A DNA stretch of 63,849 bases, filler included, from an uncultured Methanosarcinales archaeon (GTDB taxonomy: Archaea; Nanobdellota; Nanobdellia; Woesearchaeales; GW2011-AR9), in the NCBI GenBank assembly GCA_964434885.1. It is 6 parts of 6 records of this genome, joined end to end, with 100 filler letters (N's around TTAATTAATTAA, not from the genome) between each part and the next. Parts side by side here need not be neighbours in the genome. Positions count along the whole stretch, not along the records: positions 12,530 to 24,936 come from CAYSWQ010000029.1; 5 more parts are not named here. One strand, given 5' to 3'. Both the position numbers and the translations under genes were made by a program. Within the stretch, counting starts at the first letter, position 1. Every line of letters begins with the position of its first letter. The notes beneath the pieces are model-generated. The model did no database searches, was not told the origin of the DNA, and saw nothing but the letters and a program-made list of their open reading frames with translations. Shown piece by piece: positions 12,530 through 24,936 of this stretch.

Positions 12530-12666
12530 TCTGTATTATAAACCTCCTAAAGAAGTATGGGATGATCTAATTGTGCCTTAGTTTCGGGATGTGCCCCAGT
12601 TTCGGGATAATAGACCTATTCTTAACAAACAAAAACCTTATAAAGCAAATAATTTTTCAAAAAAAG

Positions 12667-13011
12667 ATGGAAAAACGGGAAGTCTTAGGTTTAGTGGAAG
12701 AAGTTGTTATTTTTGGAAATAATCATTTTAAAAAGAAAGTTTTAGCAAGAATAGATACTGGTGCTACTAATAGTTCTGTTGATATGGGAATAGCTGGAGA
12801 ATTACAACTAGGTCCAATTAAAAGAACTAAGTTGGTTAAATCTGCTAGTGGAAAAGGTAGAAGAGCAATTGTTCCAGTAAAAATAAAATTAGATGGTAAG
12901 ATTATGGACGATGATTTTACAATTGCAGAAAGAGGCCACATGACTTATCCTGTTTTAATTGGACAAAATATTTTGAAAAAAGGCAATTTTTTGATTGATC
13001 CGAATAAATGA
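12667..13011 (+). CDS. RimK-associated putative protease (retropepsin-like)
   Basis: ARIDTGA..SS, R..M.YPVLIG; overlaps the rimK-like gene (ATGA-type overlap). Confidence 0.85.
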   Translation: MEKREVLGLVEEVVIFGNNHFKKKVLARIDTGATNSSVDMGIAGELQLGPIKRTKLVKSASGKGRRAIVPVKIKLDGKIMDDDFTIAERGHMTYPVLIGQNILKKGNFLIDPNK

Positions 13012-14117
13012 TAGAAGAAGGGCCAAAGTTGAGGGGAGGAATAATTTCTTTAGGTAGTAAGAGCTCTTTGATGGTTATTGAAGCCATGAAAAAATATTTC
13101 TATCAAGTTGATGATATTCAAGTTAAAGATATTGAAGTTAGTTTAGGTAAAGAAGGGGGAGTTTTTTACCAGGGAGAACCTTTACCAAAATATGATTGTT
13201 TATTACTAAAAGGTTCTTTTCGTTATGCACATTTGTTAAGATCTGTGGCAAGTTTATTGGAAGATAAAACACCATATATGCCTTTAGCTTCTTCTGCTTT
13301 TACAATAGTCCATAATAAACTATTGACTCATTTGACATTACAACAACATAATATTGCCATGCCGAAAACTTACGTCTCTTCTACTATTGATGCAGCTAAA
13401 GATGTGTTGAAAAAAGTTAATTATCCAATTGTGATGAAGTTTCCAGAAGGAACACAAGGTAAAGGAGTGATGTTTGCTGATTCATTAAGTTCTGCTTCTT
13501 CAATGTTAGATGCTTTAGTTGCCTTAAGACAGCCCTTTATTATTCAGGAATTTATTGAAACTGGGGGCAAAGATATCCGGGCATTAGTAGTAGGAGATAA
13601 AGTAGTTTCTTCAATGGTTAGAACTGCTCAAAAAGATGAAAATCGTGCTAATATTCATGCCGGTGGTTCAGGAGAATATATTGAGTTAGATAGAAATGCT
13701 AGAAAATTAGCAATTAATACTGCCAAAGCATTAGGAACAGATATTTGTGGAGTTGATATTTTAGAAAGTCATATTGGTCCAATGGTTTTGGAAGCCAATA
13801 TTTCTCCAGGATTGCAAGGGTTAAGTAAAGTTTCTAGAGTAGATGTTGCTGATGAGATTGCTAAGTATTTGTATAAAAGAACTGCTGAAGTAGTAGGGGT
13901 ACATCAAGAAGTAAAGAAAAAAGAAACAATGAAAGATATTTTGGGAGAAACTAGTATTACTGGTTGTGAAGAAATTATTACTTCTTTAAGTTTTAGAGGA
14001 GAAAGAATTCTTTTACCTGAATTAGTTACTAAAATGACTAAGTTTGATGATGATAAAGAGTATATCATCAAAGCATGTAAAGGGAAGTTAGAAGTTTTAG
14101 AGTTTAAGATTGGATAA
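13008..14117 (+). CDS. RimK/LysX-family ATP-grasp ligase
   Basis: GTQGKGV, IIQEFI, DIRALVVG, RANIHAGG, GVDIL, LEAN.SPG. Confidence 0.9.
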   Translation: MIEEGPKLRGGIISLGSKSSLMVIEAMKKYFYQVDDIQVKDIEVSLGKEGGVFYQGEPLPKYDCLLLKGSFRYAHLLRSVASLLEDKTPYMPLASSAFTIVHNKLLTHLTLQQHNIAMPKTYVSSTIDAAKDVLKKVNYPIVMKFPEGTQGKGVMFADSLSSASSMLDALVALRQPFIIQEFIETGGKDIRALVVGDKVVSSMVRTAQKDENRANIHAGGSGEYIELDRNARKLAINTAKALGTDICGVDILESHIGPMVLEANISPGLQGLSKVSRVDVADEIAKYLYKRTAEVVGVHQEVKKKETMKDILGETSITGCEEIITSLSFRGERILLPELVTKMTKFDDDKEYIIKACKGKLEVLEFKIG

Positions 14118-14159
14118 TTTTTGGAAAATCTTATAATAAATTGCTATTTTTTTAATTAA

Positions 14160-14510
14160 ATGAGTATTATTTCACAGGATTTGGAAGTAGAACTAAAACA
14201 AGTATATTCAAGAATGTCTAAATTAGATGATTTTCCAAAAAGTTATTGTTCGGAAGTTAGCAGAGAATTAGAAGAATTAGGTTTGGAACCTCAATGGGGT
14301 TGGTTTGTTTTGGATTTTCCTATGCCTGACTGGCCATATGATTTTGAAAGCCATACTTGGTCAAAAACTGAAGAAGGAATTTATATTGATTTAACTGCCC
14401 ACCAATTCAATTCAGGTCTTGAAAAACCCCTTTCTCCTGGGGTGTTAATTGTTGCTCCTGATTCAGCACTTAGAAAGAGATATGATACTTCTGTGAGATT
14501 TTCTCATTGA
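14160..14510 (+). CDS. Hypothetical protein (possible Cys-His-Asp transglutaminase-like)
   Basis: YC..VS, H.W, IDLTAHQF pattern. Confidence 0.45.
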   Translation: MSIISQDLEVELKQVYSRMSKLDDFPKSYCSEVSRELEELGLEPQWGWFVLDFPMPDWPYDFESHTWSKTEEGIYIDLTAHQFNSGLEKPLSPGVLIVAPDSALRKRYDTSVRFSH

Positions 14511-14542
14511 AACAACTTCATTTAAAATAAAAGAATAAAAAA

Positions 14543-14821
14543 TTATTTTTTCTTTTTCTTAGTTGTTTTCTTTTTAGTTACTTTGGTTTGAACTTTTCTT
14601 TTTGCTGCTGCTTTTGGTTGGAAGAATAACAAATACACAATTGGTAATATTCCTGCAGTGTTGAAAATCAAGATAACCACAAACCAAGCTAATTGATTGT
14701 TTCGGCCACATTTCCATAAAGCAATTCCTTTCCAGACTAAACTCCAAAGAGAAATTATTATTATGAAACCAATAAAACCACTAGTTAAAGCAGCACTTCC
14801 CATCATTAATTCTGCAAACAT
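14543..14821 (-). CDS. DUF5652-like small membrane protein
   Basis: WSLVWKGIALWK...WFV....NTAGILPI.Y; RBS GAGGTG upstream. Confidence 0.75.
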   Translation of the reverse strand: MFAELMMGSAALTSGFIGFIIIISLWSLVWKGIALWKCGRNNQLAWFVVILIFNTAGILPIVYLLFFQPKAAAKRKVQTKVTKKKTTKKKKK

Positions 14822-14913
14822 TTTTTCACCTCTTTATTTTTATTTTGTTTTAGTTTTTAATATTTTTGTTTTAAAAACATTTATTAACAATAAAATATTC
14901 TTTTTTTAAAAAG

Positions 14914-17085
14914 ATGGTTGATTGGAAAAAGTTTTGGAAGTATATGATTACTGATCCGAAGAAAGTTAAGAAGCAAGAAGCAGTTGTTAGTAAACCACTT
15001 TCTTCAACTATTGATTCTAAACCAAGTTTTTTTTCAAAATTATTTTCTAGTAAACCTAAAGAAGTCCACTCAACTAATTTGGCAAAAACAGATTCAAAAC
15101 CTGTTTCTTTAATCCAAACTACTACGGAACATACTGGTAAACACAAATTAAGTTATTTTGTAGTTGTATTTGTATTAATAAACTCTATTTTAGGAAGTAG
15201 TTTATTTTATTTGCCAAGTTTAGGAATGAAGAGTTCAGGACCGGCAGCGATTTTAGCATGGATTTTTTTATTCATTGTAGCAACATTTACAATGCTTTAT
15301 GTAGGGGAATTGATTTCATTACATCCTACTTCAGGAGGAACCTATGAATTTTGTAAAAGAGCATATGGTAGATTTGTGTCTTTTATTGCTGGGTGGTTGA
15401 TTTGGTTAGCAGGAAATTTAGGAATGGCTTTAGCAGTAGTAGCGGCAGCTGAATATTTTATTCCAAGTACGGTTGCTAACTTTTTTGTTTTAAGAATTGT
15501 TTTTAGTATATTGTGGATTTTAGTGCTGAATTATATTGCTTTTAGAGGAATTGATGCAGGGGCAACTATGTTGGTGGTTTTTGGAATACTTTCAATTTTA
15601 GTGGTTTTGGCAATAGTGATCCCTTCTTTTATTCATATTCCAAGTTTAGCTTCAGGAGACTTAGTGAGTAAGTTTGATACAAGTATAATTGGTAAATTTT
15701 TTACACAAGATGGTTTTGGAATATTCATGTATTTGGGATTAAGTTTATTTTTGATTTGCGAAGCTTTTTTTGGATTTGAAGCATTAAGTTATATGGCTAA
15801 TGAAATTGAAGATAAAAAGAAGATTACTAAAGCGTTAACCACAGCAATGATCATTTGTGGGGTAGTTATCACAATTTTTTTAGTTAGTTCTTATGGAACT
15901 GTTAGTTACAAAGATTATGTTCAAGATGCTAGGCCGTGGGCAGTACAGGCGTTGAATAATTTAGGACAAACTGGCCAGACAATTGTGGTTTTTGGAATGT
16001 ATTTAGTGATTATTGGGGCAGCAGCAGCTTGGCCAATTACAGGTTCTAGGTTGATTAGGGCATTAGCTAAAGATGGGTTGTTTTTAAAGAAATTTTCAAA
16101 ACTTCATCCAGTTCATAATTCTCCTTACCGGGCAGTTTTTTTCCAGACGATTGTAGTTGGTTTATTTACTTGGTTGATTTTTAGGGGATATACTAAAGGT
16201 TGGGGAGACCCTTACCGGACAATGTATTTGATTTTTGTTTTGTTTAGTTTAATAGTATTAGCTTTGGTTTTATTTGCAGTACCAGTATTAAGAAAGAAAG
16301 AAGCAAATTTAGAAAGAATTTACAAAGCCCCTTTACCTTGGCTAGGTCCGATTTTAATTGTGGGGTTGTTTGTTTTTTTGATTGGTAATTGGATTTGGTT
16401 AGAGTATCTAACTGCTCTTTCTATCTTAAAATTAGCAGGCTCTTTAGTTTTATTGGGATTGCCATTGTATTTCTTAATAGAGATGTATTATGATCCGAAG
16501 GCAATAAGTGGAACCAACAAATATCTTAGTTATTTGGTGTTGGCAACAGAAAAATATTTTTTCCCATTTAGTTTAAAGAAAAAATTACTTGATAGTTTAG
16601 GTGGGTTGAAAGGAAAAACAATTTTGGAATATGGTTGTGGAGTAGGAACTTTAACTAGAAAATTAGCAGCTCGAGTAGGGGAGAAAGGAAGAATATTTTC
16701 TACTGGATTAAGTTTTCATAACGTTAAGATTGTGTATAAAAGAATAAAACAATATGGACATGCTTCAGTACACCACCACCCTTATGTTAAGTCTTTTAAA
16801 TTGAAATTACCTCGTCAAGTTGATATAGTTTTGTCTGTAGGGATGCTTTCGAATATGCAAAATCCTCAACAAGTTCTTAAACATCTTTCGGCTAAAGTGA
16901 AGAAAGGAGGAAGAATTGTATTTTTAGATTATGATAAATTCTTTTATTTAATACCTAATGTACCTTGGATTGAAAACGAAGAGATGTTAAAGAAAACATT
17001 TGAGCAGGCAGGATTTCATGTGATTATCAAGAAAGTTAGGGGTTTGTTGTGGACATATGTTTTGATTACTGGGATTAAGAAGTAA
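14914..17085 (+). CDS. APC-family amino-acid permease fused to a C-terminal class I methyltransferase domain
   Basis: INSILGS (TM1), P.SGG.Y, FFGFE (TM6), about 12 TMs; C-terminal ILEYGCGVG SAM-binding motif. Confidence 0.85.
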   Translation: MVDWKKFWKYMITDPKKVKKQEAVVSKPLSSTIDSKPSFFSKLFSSKPKEVHSTNLAKTDSKPVSLIQTTTEHTGKHKLSYFVVVFVLINSILGSSLFYLPSLGMKSSGPAAILAWIFLFIVATFTMLYVGELISLHPTSGGTYEFCKRAYGRFVSFIAGWLIWLAGNLGMALAVVAAAEYFIPSTVANFFVLRIVFSILWILVLNYIAFRGIDAGATMLVVFGILSILVVLAIVIPSFIHIPSLASGDLVSKFDTSIIGKFFTQDGFGIFMYLGLSLFLICEAFFGFEALSYMANEIEDKKKITKALTTAMIICGVVITIFLVSSYGTVSYKDYVQDARPWAVQALNNLGQTGQTIVVFGMYLVIIGAAAAWPITGSRLIRALAKDGLFLKKFSKLHPVHNSPYRAVFFQTIVVGLFTWLIFRGYTKGWGDPYRTMYLIFVLFSLIVLALVLFAVPVLRKKEANLERIYKAPLPWLGPILIVGLFVFLIGNWIWLEYLTALSILKLAGSLVLLGLPLYFLIEMYYDPKAISGTNKYLSYLVLATEKYFFPFSLKKKLLDSLGGLKGKTILEYGCGVGTLTRKLAARVGEKGRIFSTGLSFHNVKIVYKRIKQYGHASVHHHPYVKSFKLKLPRQVDIVLSVGMLSNMQNPQQVLKHLSAKVKKGGRIVFLDYDKFFYLIPNVPWIENEEMLKKTFEQAGFHVIIKKVRGLLWTYVLITGIKK

Positions 17086-18111
17086 TTATTTTAATTTAAA
17101 CATTTCTTTCCATTCAACAAAGTTTTTTAGTATTGCGGGTATGATGCCAGTCCAAGTAAAATTTTTGTAAGTTAGAATTCCTTTATGTTTTCCTAAACTG
17201 ATTAACATCATTCTTGGTTTGGAAGTATAGTTGGTTAAGGGTTTGTTTTTTTCGAGGTTGATAATATTTTGATAAACTATTTCTGCTTGTTTCTCAGCGT
17301 TTTGAGCAGTTTTCTCTTCTTTAATTGCAGTAACATCGCCGGCAACAAAAATATTTTTATTGAGTTGTAGATTTGAATTGGTAATAATAAATTTTCTTGA
17401 ATCTAGATATTTTGGAAAGTTTTTTGTTAAGAATTCTGAATTAGGAGTTATTCCAGTACAAAAGAAAGCCAAATCTGCATTTATTTTTGTTTGTTTATCA
17501 GTAAAAAAAGTGTTCTGTTTATTATTTATTACTTTTTCTCCAAAAATGATTTCTATTTTTTTCTTATTTAGATATTCGTGAGTGTAGTTAATTGCTTTTT
17601 GGTTACATCTTGGAATGCAGGTTTTTTGAGACTGGACTATGATTATTTCTTTATCCGAATGTTTTTCTTTTATTTCAGCAGCCAATTCTATCCCTACTAA
17701 ACCTCCACCAATAATTAATATTTTTTTGGAAGAAGAAACTTTTTCTGAATATTTTTTTAATGTTTCTCCTCGATAAGCTAGAACTACGTTTTCTTGTTTA
17801 ATTAATGAGTTATAACGAGAACCAGAACAAATTACTAAATAATCAAAACTTATTTTTTGTTTACTCATAATAACTTCTTTTTTAGTTACAGTTTTTACTT
17901 TATCTTTGAGAATTGTTGTTTTTTTGAGATAATTTTGATGTAATGATTGAATTTTGTTTAGATGGTTTGGTTCAACAATAGTTCTTAAGATAGAAGGAGT
18001 AAATTCAAAATAATCCTTAGTATCAATTAAAGTAACTTGAAATTTTTTTTCTAATTTTCTAGCTAACCAAGACCCAGAAAATCCTCCACCAATAATTATA
18101 ATTTTTTTCAT
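17086..18111 (-). CDS. FAD/NAD(P)-dependent oxidoreductase (NDH-2/AIFM2-like)
   Basis: Two GxGxxG motifs (IIGGGFSG, IIGGGLVG), IFVAGD. Confidence 0.85.
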   Translation of the reverse strand: MKKIIIIGGGFSGSWLARKLEKKFQVTLIDTKDYFEFTPSILRTIVEPNHLNKIQSLHQNYLKKTTILKDKVKTVTKKEVIMSKQKISFDYLVICSGSRYNSLIKQENVVLAYRGETLKKYSEKVSSSKKILIIGGGLVGIELAAEIKEKHSDKEIIIVQSQKTCIPRCNQKAINYTHEYLNKKKIEIIFGEKVINNKQNTFFTDKQTKINADLAFFCTGITPNSEFLTKNFPKYLDSRKFIITNSNLQLNKNIFVAGDVTAIKEEKTAQNAEKQAEIVYQNIINLEKNKPLTNYTSKPRMMLISLGKHKGILTYKNFTWTGIIPAILKNFVEWKEMFKLK

Positions 18112-18143
18112 TATGTAAAGAAAAACAAAAAGAAAATAAAAAG

Positions 18144-18539
18144 TTATTGTTTTACAGCCATGTTACCTGGACCTGTTAGGTATAAACTGATATAGCCGGC
18201 TACTGCTGTTAAATGGAATAACAGAATTATGTAGGCCATCGGATTAGTACCAAACGAAGGTATTGTAACTAAAATTGTGGCAACAGCAATAATCGCTATT
18301 GGTGGCCAGACAGTGTATCTAAGTTTCCATCCGAGGATTAAGGCAGCTCCAAATCCAATTTCAGATAAGATTACTACCCATCCAAAAAAAGTAGATGCAG
18401 GAAAACCTAGATTTCCTAACATTCCAATTATTCCCGAAGGATTGGCAATTTTAGCTAATCCTGGAATTAACATTAACAAACCTAAAGCTATTCTTAAGAC
18501 AGTAGGTCCATATTTTTCACATTTACATTTTGATTTCAT
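18144..18539 (-). CDS. DoxX-family membrane protein
   Basis: LRIALG, GLAK, E...G..LILG, GPG end motif. Confidence 0.8.
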   Translation of the reverse strand: MKSKCKCEKYGPTVLRIALGLLMLIPGLAKIANPSGIIGMLGNLGFPASTFFGWVVILSEIGFGAALILGWKLRYTVWPPIAIIAVATILVTIPSFGTNPMAYIILLFHLTAVAGYISLYLTGPGNMAVKQ

Positions 18540-18551
18540 TTTTTTAACCTC

Positions 18552-19364
18552 CTATTTATGTAGGTGTACATCCATTTGCGGGTAAGGGATGCTTATTTTT
18601 TCTTTATCAAATTCTAATTTTACTTGTTCAGTTAAATCAAAGTGAACATCCCAGTAATCTTTGCCTTCAGCCCATGCTCGAACAGTGAAGTTAACTGTAC
18701 TGTCTCCTAGTTCTGCTACTCGAACAAACGGAGCTGGATCTTTCAATATTTTATTGTGTTTATTTACTATTTTATTTAGAATTTGTTGTGCTTTTTTCAA
18801 ATCATCATCATAACCAATGCCAAAAGTTAAATCAACTCTTCTGGTTTTTTCTGTAGAAAGATTATTGATAATTCCATTACTTAAAATTCCATTGGGAACA
18901 ATTACTGTTTGGTTGTCGGGAGTTTTGATGATGGTGTTAAAAATTTCTATTTGAGAAACTTTTCCTTTTTGGCCTTGCGCTTCAATTACATCTCCGACCT
19001 TAAATGGCTTGAACAAAAGGATTAAAACTCCACCTGCAAAATTACCTAAACTACCTTGTAAAGCCATTCCAATAGCAAAACCGGCTGCTGCTAATACTGC
19101 AACAAAACTAGTAGTTTCTACTCCGACCATGGAAATTACAGTTACTACTAAGATTACTTTCAGGAAGATACTAATCAGACTGACTAAAAAGTGTTTTAGT
19201 GATTCCTCCATATTCTTTTTATCCATTGCTTTTCTAGTTAATTTTCCCATATATTTGATTAACCGCAGACCTACTAACAATACAATTACTGCTAACAAAA
19301 CTTTTGGTGCATAGAAAACTGCAGCATCAATTGCTTTATTTATATAAATATTATAATCAACCAT
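18552..19364 (-). CDS. mscS: Small-conductance mechanosensitive channel
   Basis: GFAIGMALQGSLGNFAGG, KPFKVGD, IPYPQMDV; start at ATG 19364 after RBS GGGTGA. Confidence 0.92.
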   Translation of the reverse strand: MVDYNIYINKAIDAAVFYAPKVLLAVIVLLVGLRLIKYMGKLTRKAMDKKNMEESLKHFLVSLISIFLKVILVVTVISMVGVETTSFVAVLAAAGFAIGMALQGSLGNFAGGVLILLFKPFKVGDVIEAQGQKGKVSQIEIFNTIIKTPDNQTVIVPNGILSNGIINNLSTEKTRRVDLTFGIGYDDDLKKAQQILNKIVNKHNKILKDPAPFVRVAELGDSTVNFTVRAWAEGKDYWDVHFDLTEQVKLEFDKEKISIPYPQMDVHLHK

Positions 19365-19374
19365 TTCAATCACC

Positions 19375-19815
19375 CTAATAGATGCCTTTTTCGTTTTTAA
19401 AGAATTCAATTACTCCTTCTTTTCCTTCACTAGGACATTTCATCTTTTCAAATTTTCCATCTTGCTTATGTACCATTACACAAACTTTGTTTTCTTTTGC
19501 TTTTTGATAAGCATAAGCTTTGGCTTTTCTTTTGTTGTCAAAAAATTCTTCTTTCATTCTATTTTTGGCATCAATAACTATCCAACCTTCTTCATCTGGT
19601 ACGACGTGTTGATTGGTGTGTTCCAAATTACACTCTCTGTTTTCAAATTTTCCTTGGTCGTCATGTATTACCATACAGGCTTGATGTTTTGTGGCTATAT
19701 GGTGGGCATAATCTAATGCTTCTCCACGGTTTGAGAATACGCGAGAAGCCTTTTTTTTACCTGCGGTTTTTACGGCCCAACCATTTTCTCTGGGCACAAC
19801 ATGTTTGTCTTTCAT
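19375..19815 (-). CDS. Tandem DUF2188-domain protein
   Basis: Two repeats of HVVP...GW.V...A...A......H..DG.F. Confidence 0.8.
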   Translation of the reverse strand: MKDKHVVPRENGWAVKTAGKKKASRVFSNRGEALDYAHHIATKHQACMVIHDDQGKFENRECNLEHTNQHVVPDEEGWIVIDAKNRMKEEFFDNKRKAKAYAYQKAKENKVCVMVHKQDGKFEKMKCPSEGKEGVIEFFKNEKGIY

Positions 19816-19923
19816 TTTTGTTACCTCCGTTTTTTTTTACAAAAACTTAGAATTTTATAGTTATGGAGGTAATAATAATTATAATAATATTGTTTAATGA
19901 TTAAATAACTTGTTTAATCAGAA

Positions 19924-20454
19924 TTATTTTTTTCTTTTATCTTTTCTGAATTTCTTATGGATGTGGGGATGTCTGTCATGGTGGTGTTTAAATTTTTTAA
20001 ATAATCTCGATTTGGTAACTATTCGTACACTTCGAGCAGCAATCCGAATATATTTAGCTACTTTTTGTGTTCTTCCTATAGCACTAATTCCTTTTCTAGC
20101 TTCTAATGTTTCATGTAAGATTGCTTGACCAATACCTAATTGACCAGCAGCTGAAGCTGCTCTCCAAATTTTACTGGCAATAGTAAAAGCAATAGCTAAA
20201 GGGATAACTGCCAATAGATCTAACCAATAACTTTTGAAGAAAAATTTAACACTTTTAGCTTTAATTCCGAGGAAAATTAAATCAATGACGAATACTGCTA
20301 TAACACAATAATCTAAAATAACAATTGGGGTGTGATAGTGATGGGCAAAATCTTGAAAGAATAATTCTACGATAATTACAAACAATAATGCTACAATAGC
20401 ATAAGGAATTAGTTTGGCGTTGTAGTGTTCTACTTTTTTCCAAAATTTATTCAT
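19924..20454 (-). CDS. Stand-alone voltage-sensor-like (S1-S4) protein without a pore
   Basis: S2 LDY.VIAVF.ID, S3 YWLDLLAVIP, basic S4-like KYIRIAARSVR; no pore loop. Confidence 0.7.
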   Translation of the reverse strand: MNKFWKKVEHYNAKLIPYAIVALLFVIIVELFFQDFAHHYHTPIVILDYCVIAVFVIDLIFLGIKAKSVKFFFKSYWLDLLAVIPLAIAFTIASKIWRAASAAGQLGIGQAILHETLEARKGISAIGRTQKVAKYIRIAARSVRIVTKSRLFKKFKHHHDRHPHIHKKFRKDKRKK

Positions 20455-20552
20455 GGTAGAAAGAATATTTTTTTTGTTTTTAAAAGTTTGTTTTTTTGTG
20501 AAACCGCAACATTTATAATTTAAATTAATTTACTTCTTACAAAAAGAGGAAA

Positions 20553-22877
20553 ATGGCTAAAAGTAAACTAGATAATTTAATACAATTATTGATTCCACCT
20601 TCTTTAGTTTTGTTATTAGTAGTTACAATTGTTGAGCTTTTTTATGGAGTTAGTATTTTTTGGAGTTATGTGATTGATGTTTTTGATGTTTATGTAGTTG
20701 TTATTTTTGCTATTGATTTGTATTATCGATGGTTTGAAACACCTAAATTTTTCCCCTACGTGAAGAAACATATTTTAGATATTATTGCCACGATACCATT
20801 TAACTTGATTTTTTGGGGAATTCAAGGTTTAACTTTGATCAGGGCCTTACGGGGAGTGAGATTTATTGCTCAACTGGCCCGAATGGCTAGATTTGCTAGA
20901 TATGCTCGATTTTTTAGATTGATTAGATTCGGAGCAAGGGCTCCGAGGTTTTTGCGATTTCGTAAACATGTAAAGAAAGCTAAGATTAGAAAAGTTCAAC
21001 CTCACGAGAAAGAGATGAAGAAAACTTTGAGTTTTAAGGTTATTTTGTTAATTACAATCAACTCGATTATGGGGACTGGAATTTGGTTTTTGACTTCGGC
21101 TGGAGCTAAACATGCTGGACCTGCTTCTTTAGTTTCGTGGGGAATTTTGTCATTAATTTCTATTTATATTGCGATGTGTTTTGGAGAATTAGTATCGATG
21201 TTTCCAAAAGCAGGAGGCGTTTATGAGTTTGCTAAACAAGCTTATGGTCGTTTTTGGTCTTTTGTAATTGGATGGACAACTTCAATTGCAGGAAGTGTGA
21301 CAATAGCAATGTTGTTATTGGGAGCGTTACAATATTTAATCCCTATAAAATATTCTTACACATACATTCCGATTGCAATTTTTTTGATAATAGCATTTAG
21401 TTATGTTGCTTTTAGGGGAATGCAAACATCTACTTTTGTTTTAGTAACTTTTGCGTTGATTACATTAACTGCAGTAACAGCAATTATCATTCCTGGATTT
21501 ATTAATTTTGATCCTGCTAATTTAAAGCCATTTTTTGTCTTTCCGACTATGGCTATTGTGTTAGCAATCTTTTTCATCGCAGAAACTTTTTTTGGCTGGG
21601 AAAGTGCTATTTTCCTTGCAGCAGAGACAAAAAATCCAAGTAAGATCATGCCAAAAGCTTTGATCTACGGAACTTTGGTTATTGCCATTCTTTCTTTCTT
21701 CTTAGCTTTCACAGCAATGGGAACAATTCCTTGGGCAGAATTTGCAAAATCAGTTGCGCCATTAAGAGATTTGGGAAGTGTTCATTTTGGAAATATAGGA
21801 GGAATTATTTTTGCAGTGTTAATTTTTGTTTCAGTAATTGGAGCAACTGCGGGGTGGATTGTTACTGCCCCTAGACTGTTGATGAGTATTGCCGAGGATA
21901 AATTATTTTTCACTCAATTTGCTAAAATTCACCCCAAACACAAGAGCCCTTATGTTTCAATAATGTTTCAAATTGTTGTTGTCTCTACTTTGGTTTTTGT
22001 GGGGGCCGGTTCTTATGAAACTCTGCTTCACCTTTTAATACCTTTAATTTTAATTGTTTATAGTGCAGTTCTATTAAGTGTGGTTATCCTAAGATTTAAA
22101 AGACCAGATCAACCTCGACCATATAAGGTTGTTTTCGGAAAAGTTGGGCCTTTTATCACTATTTTATTTATGATTTTCTTATTGATTATGTTTATTAAAG
22201 AAACACATAGTGCATGGGATATATTAAGAATTTCCGGAGGGTTAATTGCATTTGGTATTCCTGCTTATTTTGCGATAGAATTGTTTTATGATCAGAAATA
22301 TGTTACTTTGAGAAGGAATATATCTGCTAAATTTGCCCATTCTTTTAATCGTTTACCTTTAACTAAGATTACTTTTAATAGAATTATGTCATTAGTGGGA
22401 CCTACTAATAACAAAACTAAGTTGTTAATTCAAAATGCCCCATTGGGTTCTTTTACTCATGCTATTGTAAAATCTAAAAAACCGTTTAATAAGATATCTT
22501 TGGCTAATCAATCCAAAGAAGAGTTGAAAGTTTTCCGGGAAAAATTAGGGAAAAATGAAAGGAAAAAAGTTGAAACTATTTTATTGAGAGCATTAAAATT
22601 ACCTAATGTAAAAGTAGATAAATTTATTTCTTTTAATGATTTAGGTTATGTAAAAAATATTCCTAGATTTATTCGTGATACAAAAAATATTTTGAAACCA
22701 AAAGGTAAGTTTTGCTTTTATGTTAAAAGTTCTTTCTTTAATGTAGCTCCAAATGCTATTGAAATAGAGAATAGAAAGGAATTGATTAAACTATTTGAAA
22801 AAGAAAAATTAAAAGTTAGTTATACTAAAAGAAAGAGATTGTATAAAACTGAGATTTTTATTTCTGGAAGTAAGTGA
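20553..22877 (+). CDS. Voltage-sensor domain - APC permease - degenerate methyltransferase fusion
   Basis: aa 1-140: FDVYVVVIFAID, ILDIIATIP, (R-x-x)n S4. From about aa 155: APC (INSIMGTG, PKAGGVY, FFGWE). C-terminal Rossmann-like tail ending ILKPKGKF. Confidence 0.85.
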   Translation: MAKSKLDNLIQLLIPPSLVLLLVVTIVELFYGVSIFWSYVIDVFDVYVVVIFAIDLYYRWFETPKFFPYVKKHILDIIATIPFNLIFWGIQGLTLIRALRGVRFIAQLARMARFARYARFFRLIRFGARAPRFLRFRKHVKKAKIRKVQPHEKEMKKTLSFKVILLITINSIMGTGIWFLTSAGAKHAGPASLVSWGILSLISIYIAMCFGELVSMFPKAGGVYEFAKQAYGRFWSFVIGWTTSIAGSVTIAMLLLGALQYLIPIKYSYTYIPIAIFLIIAFSYVAFRGMQTSTFVLVTFALITLTAVTAIIIPGFINFDPANLKPFFVFPTMAIVLAIFFIAETFFGWESAIFLAAETKNPSKIMPKALIYGTLVIAILSFFLAFTAMGTIPWAEFAKSVAPLRDLGSVHFGNIGGIIFAVLIFVSVIGATAGWIVTAPRLLMSIAEDKLFFTQFAKIHPKHKSPYVSIMFQIVVVSTLVFVGAGSYETLLHLLIPLILIVYSAVLLSVVILRFKRPDQPRPYKVVFGKVGPFITILFMIFLLIMFIKETHSAWDILRISGGLIAFGIPAYFAIELFYDQKYVTLRRNISAKFAHSFNRLPLTKITFNRIMSLVGPTNNKTKLLIQNAPLGSFTHAIVKSKKPFNKISLANQSKEELKVFREKLGKNERKKVETILLRALKLPNVKVDKFISFNDLGYVKNIPRFIRDTKNILKPKGKFCFYVKSSFFNVAPNAIEIENRKELIKLFEKEKLKVSYTKRKRLYKTEIFISGSK

Positions 22878-22901
22878 TTTTATTAAGAAAGAGGTGTGTA
22901 A

Positions 22902-23141
22902 ATGAAAAAAACAATATTGGGATTTTTTGTATTGACTATTTTTTTGTTGAGTGTTACTTTTGTATTGGCAGGAGATAGTTATAACAAAACAACTAAAGAT
23001 TGTAAGACATATAAATCTGGCGTTTACAAAGTTAAATAGTATGCTGTGAAATTAATTGGATTTATTTTTGCTAGTTTTGTATTTTCCTACATTTTTTGGT
23101 GGACTAAAAAATTAGTAAAAAAAAGAAAGAAGAAAAAATAA
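22902..23141 (+). pseudogene. Small two-TM membrane protein interrupted by an in-frame TAG (23037-23039)
   Basis: RBS GAGGTG + ATG; MKKTILGFFVLTIFLLSVTFVLAG...KVK*YAVKLIGFIFASFVFSYIFWWTKKLVKKRKKKK*. The post-TAG part is a clean TM helix with a basic tail. Confidence 0.55.
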
Positions 23142-23145
23142 TTTT

Positions 23146-24087
23146 TTAATTTTCAAAATTTTCTTCAGTTTTCTTTTTCTTTTTCAATTTTGTTCCACAA
23201 ATCCGACAATGATTAGAATCTTGATCATGGTCTTCTAAACCACATTTCTTACAGCTCATTTTAGTCTTGGTTGTTTCTAAGAATATAACTTTTAGTAATT
23301 TCCCTAGTTGCCAAGGGATTAAAGCTATTCCAGATAGAATCATAGCAATAGTTATTGCTCTACCTTGCCAAGATACAGGAGTAATATCTCCATAACCTAC
23401 TGTAGTGATGGTAACAATCGCAAAATACATGGCTTCCCAGATGTTACTGAATTGTCCTGGGTTAACTTTGTTTTCTACAGTCCAGATTAATCCAGAAGCT
23501 ATTAAGATAATGGTGAAGATAGTTAAAACAATTCTGATGATGATTAACTGAGAGTCATTTAGTTGACCAAATAATGTGTTTTTTGATTTAAACATTCTTT
23601 GGAATCTTAAAACCCGTAACATTCTAAAAACCCTTAAGATTCTGAAAGCTCTTAAAAATCCAAAGTTTCCAAAGTGAGTTAAAATTGGTAAAATTACAAT
23701 CAAATCAATTATACTATAGATGTTGAAGAAGTGTTTGATCTTTTTTTCTGCTACCCACATTCTGACTAAATATTCAACAATGAAGATACCAACGATGGCA
23801 ATTTCTGCAGTGGTTAAAATAGCCTTATATAATCCAGTAGGATTATGTGTTTCTAGAATAAAAATCAAAATTACTAGGAAATTAAGAATAAATAAAGAAC
23901 CTTCTATCCGAATACCATGTTTAGAAGCATAATTATCTATATGAATATGTAAGAATTTTTTTGTTTTACTAATGATTGTATCTTCTAATTTCTCTTCTTT
24001 TTGACGAAATTTTAGTTCTGCCTTATCTTCATCAGATAATTTAGAAGTTTTCTTTTTACTAGTTGTTTTTTTCCTCTTTTTGGCCAT
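23146..24087 (-). CDS. Voltage-gated potassium channel (6TM) with C-terminal Zn ribbon
   Basis: S4 RAFRILRVFRMLRVLRFQR, filter TTVGYGD, CKKC...CRICG. Confidence 0.93.
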   Translation of the reverse strand: MAKKRKKTTSKKKTSKLSDEDKAELKFRQKEEKLEDTIISKTKKFLHIHIDNYASKHGIRIEGSLFILNFLVILIFILETHNPTGLYKAILTTAEIAIVGIFIVEYLVRMWVAEKKIKHFFNIYSIIDLIVILPILTHFGNFGFLRAFRILRVFRMLRVLRFQRMFKSKNTLFGQLNDSQLIIIRIVLTIFTIILIASGLIWTVENKVNPGQFSNIWEAMYFAIVTITTVGYGDITPVSWQGRAITIAMILSGIALIPWQLGKLLKVIFLETTKTKMSCKKCGLEDHDQDSNHCRICGTKLKKKKKTEENFEN

Positions 24088-24183
24088 CTTATTTTAGAAT
24101 TATTTTTTTGTTTTTAAAAGTTTGTTTTTTGAAATAGAAAGATATATAATTTGAAATAAAATAGTTATAAAAAAGAGGTTGAG

Positions 24184-24936
24184 ATGGCTAAACTAAAAAA
24201 AGTATTAAGTTTTCGAGTAATTTTATTGATTACTATAAATTCAATTATGGGAACAGGAATATTTTTCTTACCGGCAGTGGGGGCTAAAGCTTCTGGACCA
24301 GCTTCTTTACTTGCGTGGATAATTCTTTCTTTTATTTCAATCTATATTGCAATGTGTTTTGCAGAATTAACAAGTATGTTTCCTAAATCTGGAGGGATTT
24401 ATGAGTTTTGTAAACAAGCTTACGGGAGATTCACTTCTTTTTTGATTGGTTGGACTACAGTGATTGCAGGTAATGTAACAATTGCTATGTTGGTAGTAGG
24501 AGCAATTCAATATCTTATGCCGGTAGGTTCCACGTTTATGAAGATTATTTTTTCTTTGATATTTATTTTTGCTTTTAACTTCATTGCTTACAAAGGAATG
24601 AAAACTTCTGCTGTAATGTTGATCGCTTTTGCTTTTATTACTTTATTTACTATTCTTAGTTTAGCTATTCCTGGTTTGTGGAAGTTTCAATTAAGTAATT
24701 TTTCTCCTTTTTTTGTGCTTCCTTTTTCTTCGTTAATGTTAACTATTTTTTTGATTGCAGAAACTTTTTTTGGTTGGGAAACAGCCACTTTTTTAGCAGA
24801 GGAAACTAAAAATGGAGAAAAAGTAATGCCTAAGGCTTTAGTATATGGAACGATTATTATTGCAGTTATTTGTATTTTATCTGTAATTACTTCATTGGGA
24901 GTTATTCCTTGGCAAGTATATGGTCAATCATCAGCA
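24184..24936 (+). CDS. APC-family amino-acid permease, 3'-truncated
   Basis: LSFRVILLITINSIMGTG, PKSGGIYEF, FFGWE; close paralogue of the APC part of 20553..22877. Confidence 0.88.

Follow-up and report, generated by a model that had tools for sequence, protein, structure and literature searches.

A pore-less channel-type voltage sensor fused to an APC-superfamily permease in a DPANN archaeon: a candidate voltage-controlled transporter

A single gene of a DPANN (Woesearchaeota-type) archaeon was found to encode a protein in which a pore-less, channel-type S1-S4 voltage sensor is joined to a 12-helix APC (SLC7-like) permease and a cytoplasmic methyltransferase-like domain. Voltage control of transport is what we infer from residues and homology, as well as the movement of S4, its coupling to transport and the polarity of the response. 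On balance, we lean towards the view that S4 moves with voltage across the charge-transfer centre and that this turns amino-acid transport on or off.

The window, i.e., the whole stretch of DNA that was analysed (63,849 nucleotides), is composed of six contigs with N spacers between them, and the fusion ORF (20553..22877, + strand) lies entirely within contig C29, which spans window positions 12530-24936. The uninterrupted 774-aa ORF reported in the preliminary description was confirmed as a single open frame, which starts with ATG and is preceded by GAGG 4 nt upstream of this codon; the codon at 21015 is Met155 of the ORF.

The N-terminal voltage-sensor domain

Hydropathy analysis revealed four segments ahead of the permease, at residues 12-31, 37-57, 69-92 and 93-112, a number that would let sensor and permease both keep the N-in orientation that is usual for Kv sensors and APC carriers. 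In a single-sequence phmmer search against the PDB, residues 11-117 matched the KvAP sensor (1ors_C) with an E-value of 9.6e-6, and 23 of the 24 listed PDB matches of the N-terminal domain were voltage-gated K+ channels. A profile built from the query and free-standing relatives again found KvAP first (E 1.5e-6) and then Shaker, Kv1-3, Nav and HCN. With the N-terminal structural model as query, Foldseek gave the top ranks to two structures of the KvAP sensor, 2kyh (E 5.6e-3) and 1ors, and VIA-align returned Kv4.2 (Z 9.5, rmsd 3.6, 117 aligned residues) and KvAP (Z 8.7); these structural matches of the predicted model are modest, and designed four-helix bundles reach Z 7.5-8.5, which is near the sensor matches.

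Residue conservation was counted over 71 aligned sequences, comprising the query and 70 relatives. S1 (20586..20645, + strand; approximately residues 12-31) coincides with a hydropathy peak, is contained in a helix spanning residues 5-31 in both AF2 models and bears the conserved acid E28 (68/71). S2 (20661..20723, +; approximately residues 37-57) contains D45, F52 and D55 and is followed by R59; D45, D55 and R59 are present in all 71 sequences and F52, located three residues ahead of D55, in 70. In the phmmer alignment, these four positions stand opposite D, L, D and R of KvAP S2. S3 (20757..20828, +; approximately residues 69-92) carries D76, which is conserved in 67 of the 71 sequences and replaced by Glu in 3 more, and a kink at P82, which is present in 71/71 and also invariant in all 129 rows of a second alignment; the two residues align with the E and P of KvAP S3. 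The charge-transfer centre, made up of F52-x-x-D55, D76 and D45, is thus found in 67-71 of 71 sequences. An aromatic or hydrophobic S2 plug with an acid, an S3 acid and an outer S2 acid are the sensor hallmarks given in excerpts of PMC13095418.

S4 together with its Arg-rich extension (20829..20957, +; residues 93-135) was delimited via column counts and alignment to KvAP S4. Basic residues are located at positions 97, 100, 103, 110, 113, 116, 119, 122, 125, 129, 132 and 135, so that R97, R100 and R103 are followed by an Arg at every third residue from R110 to R125 and then by R129, R132 and R135. The register of the array shifts by one after R103, position 106 being Ala and the next series starting from 110, and indels occur, with residues 109-110 missing in 27/71 sequences. 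Between residues 93 and 140, there are 14 basic and 0 acidic residues, compared with a family median of 14 basic residues (range, 10-19) and at most 1 acidic residue.

Both the conserved signature residues and the homology to KvAP bear out the S1-S4 anatomy that had been proposed for the N-terminus. The AlphaFold check suggested at that stage gave a divided result: S1-S3 were predicted as helices with pLDDT values of 77-91, while S4 was of low confidence (pLDDT 43-63), with values below 50 at residues 89-117 of the full-length model and of 57-63 in the N-terminal model, where residues 83-110 form one helix.

Pfam gave no match for the N-terminal 155 aa even at an E-value of 10, and Ion_trans flagged the sensor in 0/120 listed clusters and, at E <= 1e-4, in 0/60 relatives, these being the 60 of the 70 aligned relatives that were scanned with Pfam. 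Of the Ion_trans plus AA_permease_2 pair proposed earlier for a search, PF13520 accompanied the N-terminal domain in all 120 listed clusters (of 122 sharing this domain), and the sensor half was never flagged by Pfam. Among the proteins matched with the N-terminal domain, 14 of 22 scanned carry Ion_trans (E <= 0.01), two of them being full channels and one an HPP fusion. A BLASTP comparison of the N-terminal domain with the neighbouring Kv channel yielded nothing significant (E 8.3). Because Pfam Ion_trans misses its sensor, the fusion family is invisible to domain-architecture searches, and this may be why it has remained undescribed. When a tree was built from the sensor domains, those of the fusions grouped in one clade (support only 0.69) that encloses the short proteins P0121, P0122 and P0123, which may be fragments.

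Permease core, linker and methyltransferase-like tail

The APC-superfamily permease core (21027..22346, +; residues 159-598) begins close to Met155 (21015), as had been described: AA_permease_2 (PF13520) matched residues 159-549 with an E-value of 1.1e-43 and a score of 150.1 bits (cut-off, 27). The AF2 model has 12 helices in the stretch from residue 161 to residue 579, and Foldseek retrieved GkApcT (6f34, E 4.6e-16) as well as BasC, AdiC and LAT1. In APC permeases, helix 1 (G-x-G) and helix 6 are each interrupted by a conserved unwound stretch. Here, G174-T175-G176 and F347-G348-W349-E350 are conserved in 71/71 sequences, and the surrounding residues 168-180 of helix 1 and 340-352 of helix 6 hardly vary over the same set. 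Judged by these residues and by the fold matches, the transporter module looks functional. No NCBIfam equivalog for the permease scored over its cut-off, the best being TIGR00909 with 181 bits against 556.8.

S4 is connected to transporter helix 1 by a basic linker (20958..21026, +; residues 136-158) with the conserved motif K-I-R-K-V-Q-P-H-E-K, in which Q149 is found in 69, P150 in 70, H151 in 71 and E152 in 68 of the 71 sequences. The linker is absent from VSD-less paralogues, and the one at 24184 begins opposite fusion residue 152/154. From its sequence, the linker is the putative coupling element between S4 and the transporter. In a predicted complex of residues 1-142 with residues 155-600, a docking score of 0.37 was obtained (best of three controls, 0.00), to be read against a benchmark in which 116 of 157 solved complexes and 2 of 215 mismatched pairs attained the mark; at scores of 0.60 or below, only 18 of the 157 did so, along with both passing mismatches. 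At least 69% of the contacts were shared between docking runs, and the pLDDT of the partner was at least 59. Docking of the sensor on the permease is thus weakly suggested by the model.

In the proposed mechanism, a change in membrane potential would shift S4 across the charge-transfer centre (F52, D55, D76). The extension of S4, followed by the linker, would transmit this motion to helix 1 and to the permease's cytoplasmic side, and voltage would then decide whether amino-acid transport is on or off. Helix 1 opens the cytoplasmic gate in the APC/LeuT fold. As S4 is joined almost directly to this gate-opening helix, the electromechanical coupling would, if true, be of a simpler kind than any described so far.

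It is unlikely, though worth weighing seriously, that the N-terminal bundle is instead a voltage-blind former sensor, which the permease would retain for structure, contact with lipids, oligomerisation or targeting. Sensor-like domains play such parts in some channels that lack voltage gating, and this fate would agree with the low-confidence prediction of S4, the register shift and indels in the Arg array, the lack of a Pfam Ion_trans match and the weak docking prediction. Against it stand a complete set of gating and counter-charge residues under strong purifying selection (D45, D55 and R59 in 71/71, F52 in 70/71) and a stretch of residues 93-140 that holds 10-19 basic and at most one acidic residue across the family, since conservation of this kind is not obviously needed for a purely structural role.

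Rather improbable is conduction of protons or another cation by the sensor itself, through an Hv1-like or omega pore, by which the coupling ion would be supplied or dissipated next to the permease, in place of mechanical gating. The closest relatives of the sensor are indeed pore-less, free-standing sensor proteins (96/123 representative matches), and S1 carries the conserved acid E28; yet the query combines a bulky F52 plug with a dense Arg array, and, according to excerpts of PMC13095418, such features normally seal the gating pore. Hv1-specific likeness did not stand out either, the best sequence and fold matches being the sensors of Kv, Nav, HCN and CatSper.

The C-terminal part (22347..22877, +; residues 599-774) is methyltransferase-like, an alpha/beta domain on the cytoplasmic side whose cofactor loop is degenerate. 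In agreement with the earlier description of a degenerate methyltransferase-like tail, AF2 predicted a Rossmann-like alpha/beta fold with alternating strands and helices at residues 623-773 (pLDDT 80-95), and the glycine loop is lost. Methyltransf_11 matched residues 647-722 with 19.5 bits in the whole protein, under the cut-off of 21.2, and with 22.6 bits against the same cut-off when the tail was scanned alone. Class I methyltransferases bind SAM by a glycine-rich motif I and an acid after strand 2; in the tail, the glycine loop reads N628-A-P-L-G632 and the acid is replaced by N652. With Asn in place of the post-strand-2 acid and an N-A-P-L-G loop, control of this copy by a SAM-like ligand, as suggested earlier, is disfavoured and, judging from these residues, unlikely. 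The G-x-G loop and the post-I D/E are kept in 20/71 aligned sequences, and the tails of these loop-keeping members give full methyltransferase Pfam matches.

These 20 members, with their acidic post-I residue and full Pfam matches, and the occurrence of the same tail on VSD-less paralogues would be in line with a sensor that controls the tail as an enzyme or ligand module, in the style of a voltage-sensing phosphatase, and uses the permease as a scaffold. We consider this very improbable, given that 12 helices lie between S4 and the tail, that paralogues bear the tail without any sensor and that, besides the query, 50 of the other 70 sequences in the alignment have a degenerate tail.

Integrity, distribution and surroundings of the fusion gene

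The junction between sensor and permease was checked against contigs from two other samples of two studies. Those from X3, spanning 20938-21246, and from X4, spanning 20938-21175, bridge the VSD/APC boundary with 0 differences each, and the mis-assembly named earlier as a possible refutation was not found; X3 and X4 are both without cover at bins 20892-20932 and past 21507. Run X2 yielded no contig despite an index share of 0.96. In X6, the stretch was partially covered, and one 46-kb contig overlapped it by approximately 20 bases and then diverged. These gaps in coverage have no bearing on the gene.

The N-terminal domain is common to 122 homologous protein clusters of the same length class (E <= 1e-3, 47-85% identity), and the order VSD-APC-tail was collinear and in a single frame in 12/12 loci fetched from other genomes. 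Among 401 sampled genomes of the phylum, the sensor was found inside an open frame of at least 600 aa in 23, with a single domain order in all of them. At position 155, 43 of the 71 aligned sequences have Met, 25 have Leu and 3 have Phe. An artefactual joining of a small sensor gene and a permease gene, via mis-assembly or a missed stop/start, could be imagined from the free-standing sensor genes and VSD-less permease paralogues at the same locus and from the Met at residue 155, but is already contradicted by the contigs of two other samples crossing the junction, the open frame in 23 genomes and 12/12 loci, the architecture in 122 clusters, the variable residue 155 and the almost invariant linker upstream of it, and retains next to no probability.

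Divergently transcribed from the fusion gene is a free-standing, VSD-only paralogue of 176 aa (19924..20454, − strand; Ion_trans E 1.4e-5, profile positions 8-125 of 241), which shares 28% identity with the fused sensor (E 3e-10). The gene at 23146..24087 (−) encodes a 6-helix voltage-gated K+ channel with a Cys-rich C-terminal tail (Ion_trans 1.1e-24, Ion_trans_2 2e-17); the NCBIfam model of a hyperpolarization-activated K+ channel scored 101.9 bits, under its cut-off of 300. A VSD-less APC paralogue at 24184..24936 (+) shows 59% identity over 249 aa to fusion residues 154-402. Consistent with the earlier statement that it starts where the APC part of the fusion begins, its residue 3 stands opposite fusion residue 154; it ends at the contig end with no genuine stop, the N spacer following from 24937. 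A second VSD-less paralogue (14914..17085, +; 723 aa) combines APC and methyltransferase domains (AA_permease_2 3.2e-45, Methyltransf_23 2.2e-12), has an intact G-x-G-x-G loop and is 29% identical to the fusion over 654 aa. Synteny was too irregular to serve as evidence of a fixed sensor-transporter operon, the fetched flanks holding a free-standing sensor in 3/12 loci and a Kv channel in 2/12.

The free-standing sensor relatives mentioned above are proteins of 121-250 aa and must work without a channel pore. They contain a hydrophilic insert in place of the short S3-S4 loop that would be expected, which implies that part of the archaeal sensor clade is atypical.

Comparison with known sensors and transporters

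Textbooks present voltage sensors as components of ion channels. Our literature search turned up no report of a voltage sensor attached to an APC/LeuT-fold carrier or to a secondary transporter of a prokaryote, in agreement with the preliminary description. The KvAP sensor (1ors, 2kyh, 6uwm) is the best sequence and Foldseek match of the fused sensor, and its S2 acidic pair, S3 acid, S3 proline and first three S4 arginines are aligned in the fusion. Unlike KvAP, the fusion lacks an S5-S6 pore, has an S3b-S4 loop that is 3 residues shorter, does not keep the fourth Arg position and carries an Arg array approximately twice as long. The permease core resembles GkApcT, BasC, AdiC and LAT1, which are of the SLC7 type (Foldseek E 4.6e-16 to 1e-13, target TM-scores 0.75-0.83), whereas none of these carriers has a sensor or a methyltransferase-like tail.

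Ci-VSP shares with the fusion a pore-less sensor and a non-channel effector in one chain (4g7v, Z 7.6 in VIA-align, a value that designed four-helix bundles also reach). Its pore-less sensor controls its effector, which is a soluble enzyme right after S4, whereas in the fusion S4 is followed by a membrane carrier.

Among transporters, SLC9C1 is the sole accepted exception according to excerpts of PMC10620092 and PMC13095418, and in the excerpted text of Yeo et al. 2023 (Nature), S4 sensor-transporter coupling "appears to be unique to SLC9C1" (PMC10620092). Both SLC9C1 and the fusion have a pore-less S1-S4 sensor in one chain with a secondary transporter and a cytoplasmic regulatory domain. In SLC9C1, S4 is a long basic cytoplasmic helix of ~60 Å, as stated in excerpts of PMC10620092, and that of the fusion, as read from its residues, runs from R97 to R135; the SLC9C1 sensor (8pcz) aligned with the N-terminal model over 102 residues (VIA-align Z 8.5, rmsd 2.9), again within the range of designed bundles. 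Transport by SLC9C1, an exchanger of animal sperm, is activated by hyperpolarisation. The two proteins differ in the transporter, which is an NhaA-fold Na+/H+ exchanger in SLC9C1 and of the APC/LeuT fold in the fusion, and in the place of the sensor, which is C-terminal in SLC9C1 and N-terminal in the fusion, leading straight into transporter helix 1. Furthermore, the extra domain is cyclic-nucleotide-binding in SLC9C1 and methyltransferase-like in the fusion, where Pfam gave no CNBD match, and the host is an animal in the one case and an archaeon in the other. Nothing points to a shared origin of the two fusions as such.

Tentatively, and with slightly less assurance than for voltage switching itself, the protein may be regarded as a prokaryotic voltage-gated secondary transporter that represents only the second class of sensor-bearing transporters, SLC9C1 being the other, and the first class with the LeuT/APC fold, with inputs via the tail and in trans being possible. 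If this is true, SAM/SAH could be a second input through the tail in the 20/71 members with an intact loop, by analogy with cAMP, the second input of SLC9C1, and the widespread free-standing sensors might act in trans on sensor-less paralogues. For DPANN biology, the architecture suggests amino-acid uptake or retention that is tied to membrane energisation. The fusion would also offer a small, prokaryotic single-chain model for the coupling of S4 motion to alternating access, and, as a second independent fusion that involves another transporter fold and occurs in 1-Mb archaeal genomes, it would make voltage control of carriers, with SLC9C1 as its animal counterpart, a general solution.

The fusion gene and its distribution

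The source genome (1.07 Mb, 66 contigs, 92% complete; six of its contigs, with N spacers between them, make up the window) encodes on contig C29 (12530-24936) a single-frame protein of 774 aa at 20553-22877 (+), confirming the uninterrupted ORF of the preliminary description. The start codon is ATG with GAGG 4 nt upstream. The protein comprises an S1-S4 voltage-sensor domain (VSD), a linker, an APC permease and a methyltransferase-like tail. Pfam revealed AA_permease_2 at residues 159-549 (E 1.1e-43) and zero matches for residues 1-155, even at E 10. The permease had been proposed to start near Met155, encoded at 21015, where a VSD-less APC paralogue at 24184-24936 (+) begins, and this paralogue does align from that position onward (249 aa, 59% identical); the paralogue is truncated by the contig end, and its other half may lie on contig C19. 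A conserved internal start is not evident at residue 155, because Met is present in just 43 of the 71 sequences of the fusion-family alignment (Leu in 25, Phe in 3).

A read check across 20950-21050 had been proposed to expose a possible mis-assembly. Short contigs from two other samples of two studies span 20938-21246 and 20938-21175 with 0 differences and, therefore, bridge the sensor-permease boundary. Of the Ion_trans + AA_permease_2 architecture search, also proposed, the recurring fusion stood and the Ion_trans match did not: querying 5.8 billion proteins with residues 1-155 (subject length 425-1355 aa, E ≤ 1e-3) yielded 122 clusters, and the 120 listed showed 47-85% identity to these residues, PF13520 being present in all 120 and PF00520 in 0. 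The cluster sources were labelled Woesearchaeota or Nanoarchaeota. Of the 401 genomes sampled from the phylum, 133 had a sensor match at E ≤ 1e-5, a tally that includes the unpublished genome G395, whose match is free-standing only. The match lay inside an open frame of at least 600 aa in 23 genomes, query genome included, 16 from the same family and 7 from other families of the same order; among the 401 genomes, 0 carried a long-frame fusion outside the order. Sensor, permease and tail segments were collinear and contiguous in 12/12 loci fetched from other fusion-bearing genomes. The fusion is real and not an artefact, its architecture is conserved and apparently undescribed, and we are highly confident that architecture and homologies are correctly assigned.

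The N-terminal domain and its free-standing relatives

Homology of the N-terminal domain to voltage sensors, as initially claimed, is well supported, because sequence, signature residues and top-ranked folds combine. A phmmer search of residues 1-155 against all PDB chains placed the isolated KvAP sensor on top (1ors_C, E 9.6e-6, residues 11-117), with voltage-gated K+ channels making up 23 of the 24 sequences listed. A profile built from the query and 58 free-standing relatives likewise retrieved KvAP (E 1.5e-6), followed by Shaker, Kv1.2, Kv1.3, Nav and HCN1. All 71 sequences of the fusion family have D45, D55, R59 and P82, and F52 (70/71), E28 (68/71) and D76 (67/71, with Glu in 3) are nearly invariant. 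Alignment with KvAP matched conserved positions to the pair of acidic residues in S2, to an acidic residue and the proline in S3 and to the three leading arginines of S4, and the F52-x-x-D55 spacing is that of the charge-transfer centre, a feature described in the accessible text of a review (PMC13095418). Basic S4 positions are 97, 100 and 103, then every third from 110 to 125, then 129, 132 and 135; the Arg register moves by one past R103, and residues 109-110 are absent in 27/71 members. Residues 93-140 contain 14 basic and 0 acidic residues (family median of basic residues 14, range 10-19).

AlphaFold modelling, advised in the preliminary description, bore out the S1-S3 helices (pLDDT 77-91; mean 77.4 for residues 1-160, 129-row alignment) but not S4, the lowest-confidence part of both AF2 models (pLDDT < 50 at 89-117 in the full-length model, 57-63 in the N-terminal model). 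Foldseek with the N-terminal model ranked two KvAP sensor structures on top (E 5.6e-3 and 3e-2). VIA-align against 48,161 chains was headed by Kv4.2 (Z 9.5), Nav1.7, KvAP (Z 8.7), Cav, Kv2.1, CatSper and SLC9C1 (Z 8.5), and the same ranking put designed four-helix bundles at Z 7.5-8.5.

An exhaustive HMMER search with the sensor domain, covering 1.84 billion representatives, gave 123 relatives: 96 free-standing proteins of 121-250 aa, 15 of 251-400 aa, 2 copies of the fusion itself, 1 long channel and 9 of at most 120 aa, likely fragments. Ion_trans matched 14 of the 22 relatives scanned (E ≤ 0.01), two of them full channels, and most of these matches were restricted to the S1-S4 portion of the profile. 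Three of the 22 (P0159, P0189 and P0191; ~305-313 aa, outside the window) carry an HPP-family membrane domain (PF04982) N-terminal to a same-type sensor and are a second case in which a sensor is fused to a membrane protein other than a channel. Several relatives of 260-370 aa have an N-terminal half without domain assignment ahead of the sensor. A pore-less free-standing sensor-like gene at 19924-20454 (-) belongs to the same large family as the relatives P0122-P0241. Such proteins of ~121-250 aa have matches in ~110 of the 401 genomes; in many of them, hydrophilic residues are inserted after S3, ahead of the Arg-rich helix, and an R-x-P-R motif is conserved. Hv-type sensor-only channels are stated as absent from bacteria and archaea in the accessible text of PMC13095418.

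Permease core, tail and neighbouring genes

The full-length AF2 model (71 rows, pLDDT 76.8, pTM 0.75) places 12 helices in the stretch 161-579, and Foldseek matched the permease core to GkApcT (6f34, E 4.6e-16), BasC, AdiC, SLC7A10, LAT1 and ApcT. Segments 168-180 of helix 1 and 340-352 of helix 6 are invariant or near-invariant in the 71 sequences, which fits a functioning carrier. No NCBIfam equivalog reached its cut-off with the fusion (best TIGR00909, 181 bits vs 556.8).

The tail forms an alternating strand-helix domain at 623-773 in the same model. Its Pfam methyltransferase match (647-722) is marginal, with 19.5 bits for the whole protein and 22.6 bits for the tail alone at a cut-off of 21.2. 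The G-x-G motif and the acidic residue after strand 2 are retained in 20/71 members; the query, like most close relatives, has an N-A-P-L-G loop and Asn after strand 2. The tail is thus degenerate, as described; judging from these motifs, the ancestral tail probably bound SAM and that of the query probably does not, which speaks against the SAM-like ligand input proposed earlier.

A second VSD-less paralogue, at 14914-17085 (+), aligns over 654 aa at 29% identity; its N-terminus is different and not a sensor, and its methyltransferase loop is intact. Both sensor-free paralogues, 14914-17085 (+) and 24184-24936 (+), combine an APC permease with a class I methyltransferase domain; to our knowledge, no role has been described for a SAM-type domain attached to an amino-acid carrier. 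The gene at 23146-24087 (-) encodes a voltage-gated K+ channel of six helices, with an N-terminus rich in lysine and a C-terminal tail of the form Cys-x2-Cys ... Cys-x2-Cys (weak Zn_ribbon_15 match, E 0.03); the channel is nearest a hyperpolarization-activated archaeal K+ channel model, well under its cut-off, and a homologue adjoins the fusion in 2/12 other genomes. Upstream of the sensor genes, a membrane/ion-homeostasis run at 17086-19815 (-) encodes a pyridine-nucleotide-disulphide oxidoreductase (NDH-2-like), DoxX, an MscS mechanosensitive channel and a tandem DUF2188 protein; the 146-aa DUF2188 ORF and the MscS ORF start overlap by 35 nt in the ORF list. A RimK-type ATP-grasp ligase and a preceding retropepsin-like 'putative ATP-dependent zinc protease' gene lie at 12571-14117 (+), and the ligase also adjoins the carrier cluster in genome G121 (locus L022).

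Proposed coupling and comparison with known systems

Kv-type sensors have their N-terminus and S4 end inside, as APC carriers have their N-terminus, and both modules would keep their usual topology in the fusion. In the full-length model the Arg array extends beyond the membrane part of S4 as a helix predicted with confidence at 115-139 (pLDDT 72-75), and a basic linker of 23 residues leads from the S4 extension directly into carrier helix 1; its Q149-P150-H151-E152 is kept in 68-71 of 71 sequences, and the linker is missing from the VSD-less paralogues. Since helix 1 and the preceding segment belong to the cytoplasmic gate of LeuT-fold carriers, S4 displacement could shift the inward-/outward-facing equilibrium by tugging on helix 1; alternatively, the basic helix, docked on the cytoplasmic face, could bias the same equilibrium. 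Two-chain docking of sensor (1-142) and carrier (155-600) scored 0.37 (best control 0.00), runs sharing at least 69% of contacts with partner pLDDT of at least 59. The docking mark was attained by 116/157 solved complexes and 2/215 mismatches and, at scores ≤ 0.60, by just 18/157 solved complexes plus both passing mismatches; the prediction weakly suggests that the sensor packs against the carrier.

On these sequence features, we lean very slightly towards voltage regulating transport by the fusion. It is unlikely, without being negligible, that the N-terminal domain is a sensor relic in a structural role; ion conduction by the sensor appears improbable, and control of the tail by the sensor more improbable still. 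A spurious joining of separate sensor and permease genes, contradicted by the bridging contigs, the 122 clusters, the open frame in 23 genomes and the 12/12 collinear loci, can practically be dismissed.

Consistent with the statement that no VSD on an APC/LeuT-fold carrier was known to have been described, full-text searches of the literature open without subscription found no paper on a voltage sensor fused to an amino acid permease or APC carrier, archaea included. A 2024 review names channels, SLC9C1, phosphatases, Hv1 and TMEM266 and no others (PMC13095418, accessible text), and in the accessible text of Yeo et al. 2023, S4 sensor-transporter coupling 'appears to be unique to SLC9C1' (PMC10620092). 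The closest relative of the fusion's sensor is KvAP, and those of its carrier part are SLC7-type APC carriers. SLC9C1 is the closest functional analogue; because transporter fold and domain set differ, the fusion falls outside the SLC9C1 family. Its long basic S4 resembles that of SLC9C1, which is ~60 Å long and bears inhibitory helices (PMC10620092, accessible text). By analogy, the fusion would act in the manner of SLC9C1, as a voltage-sensor-coupled secondary transporter.
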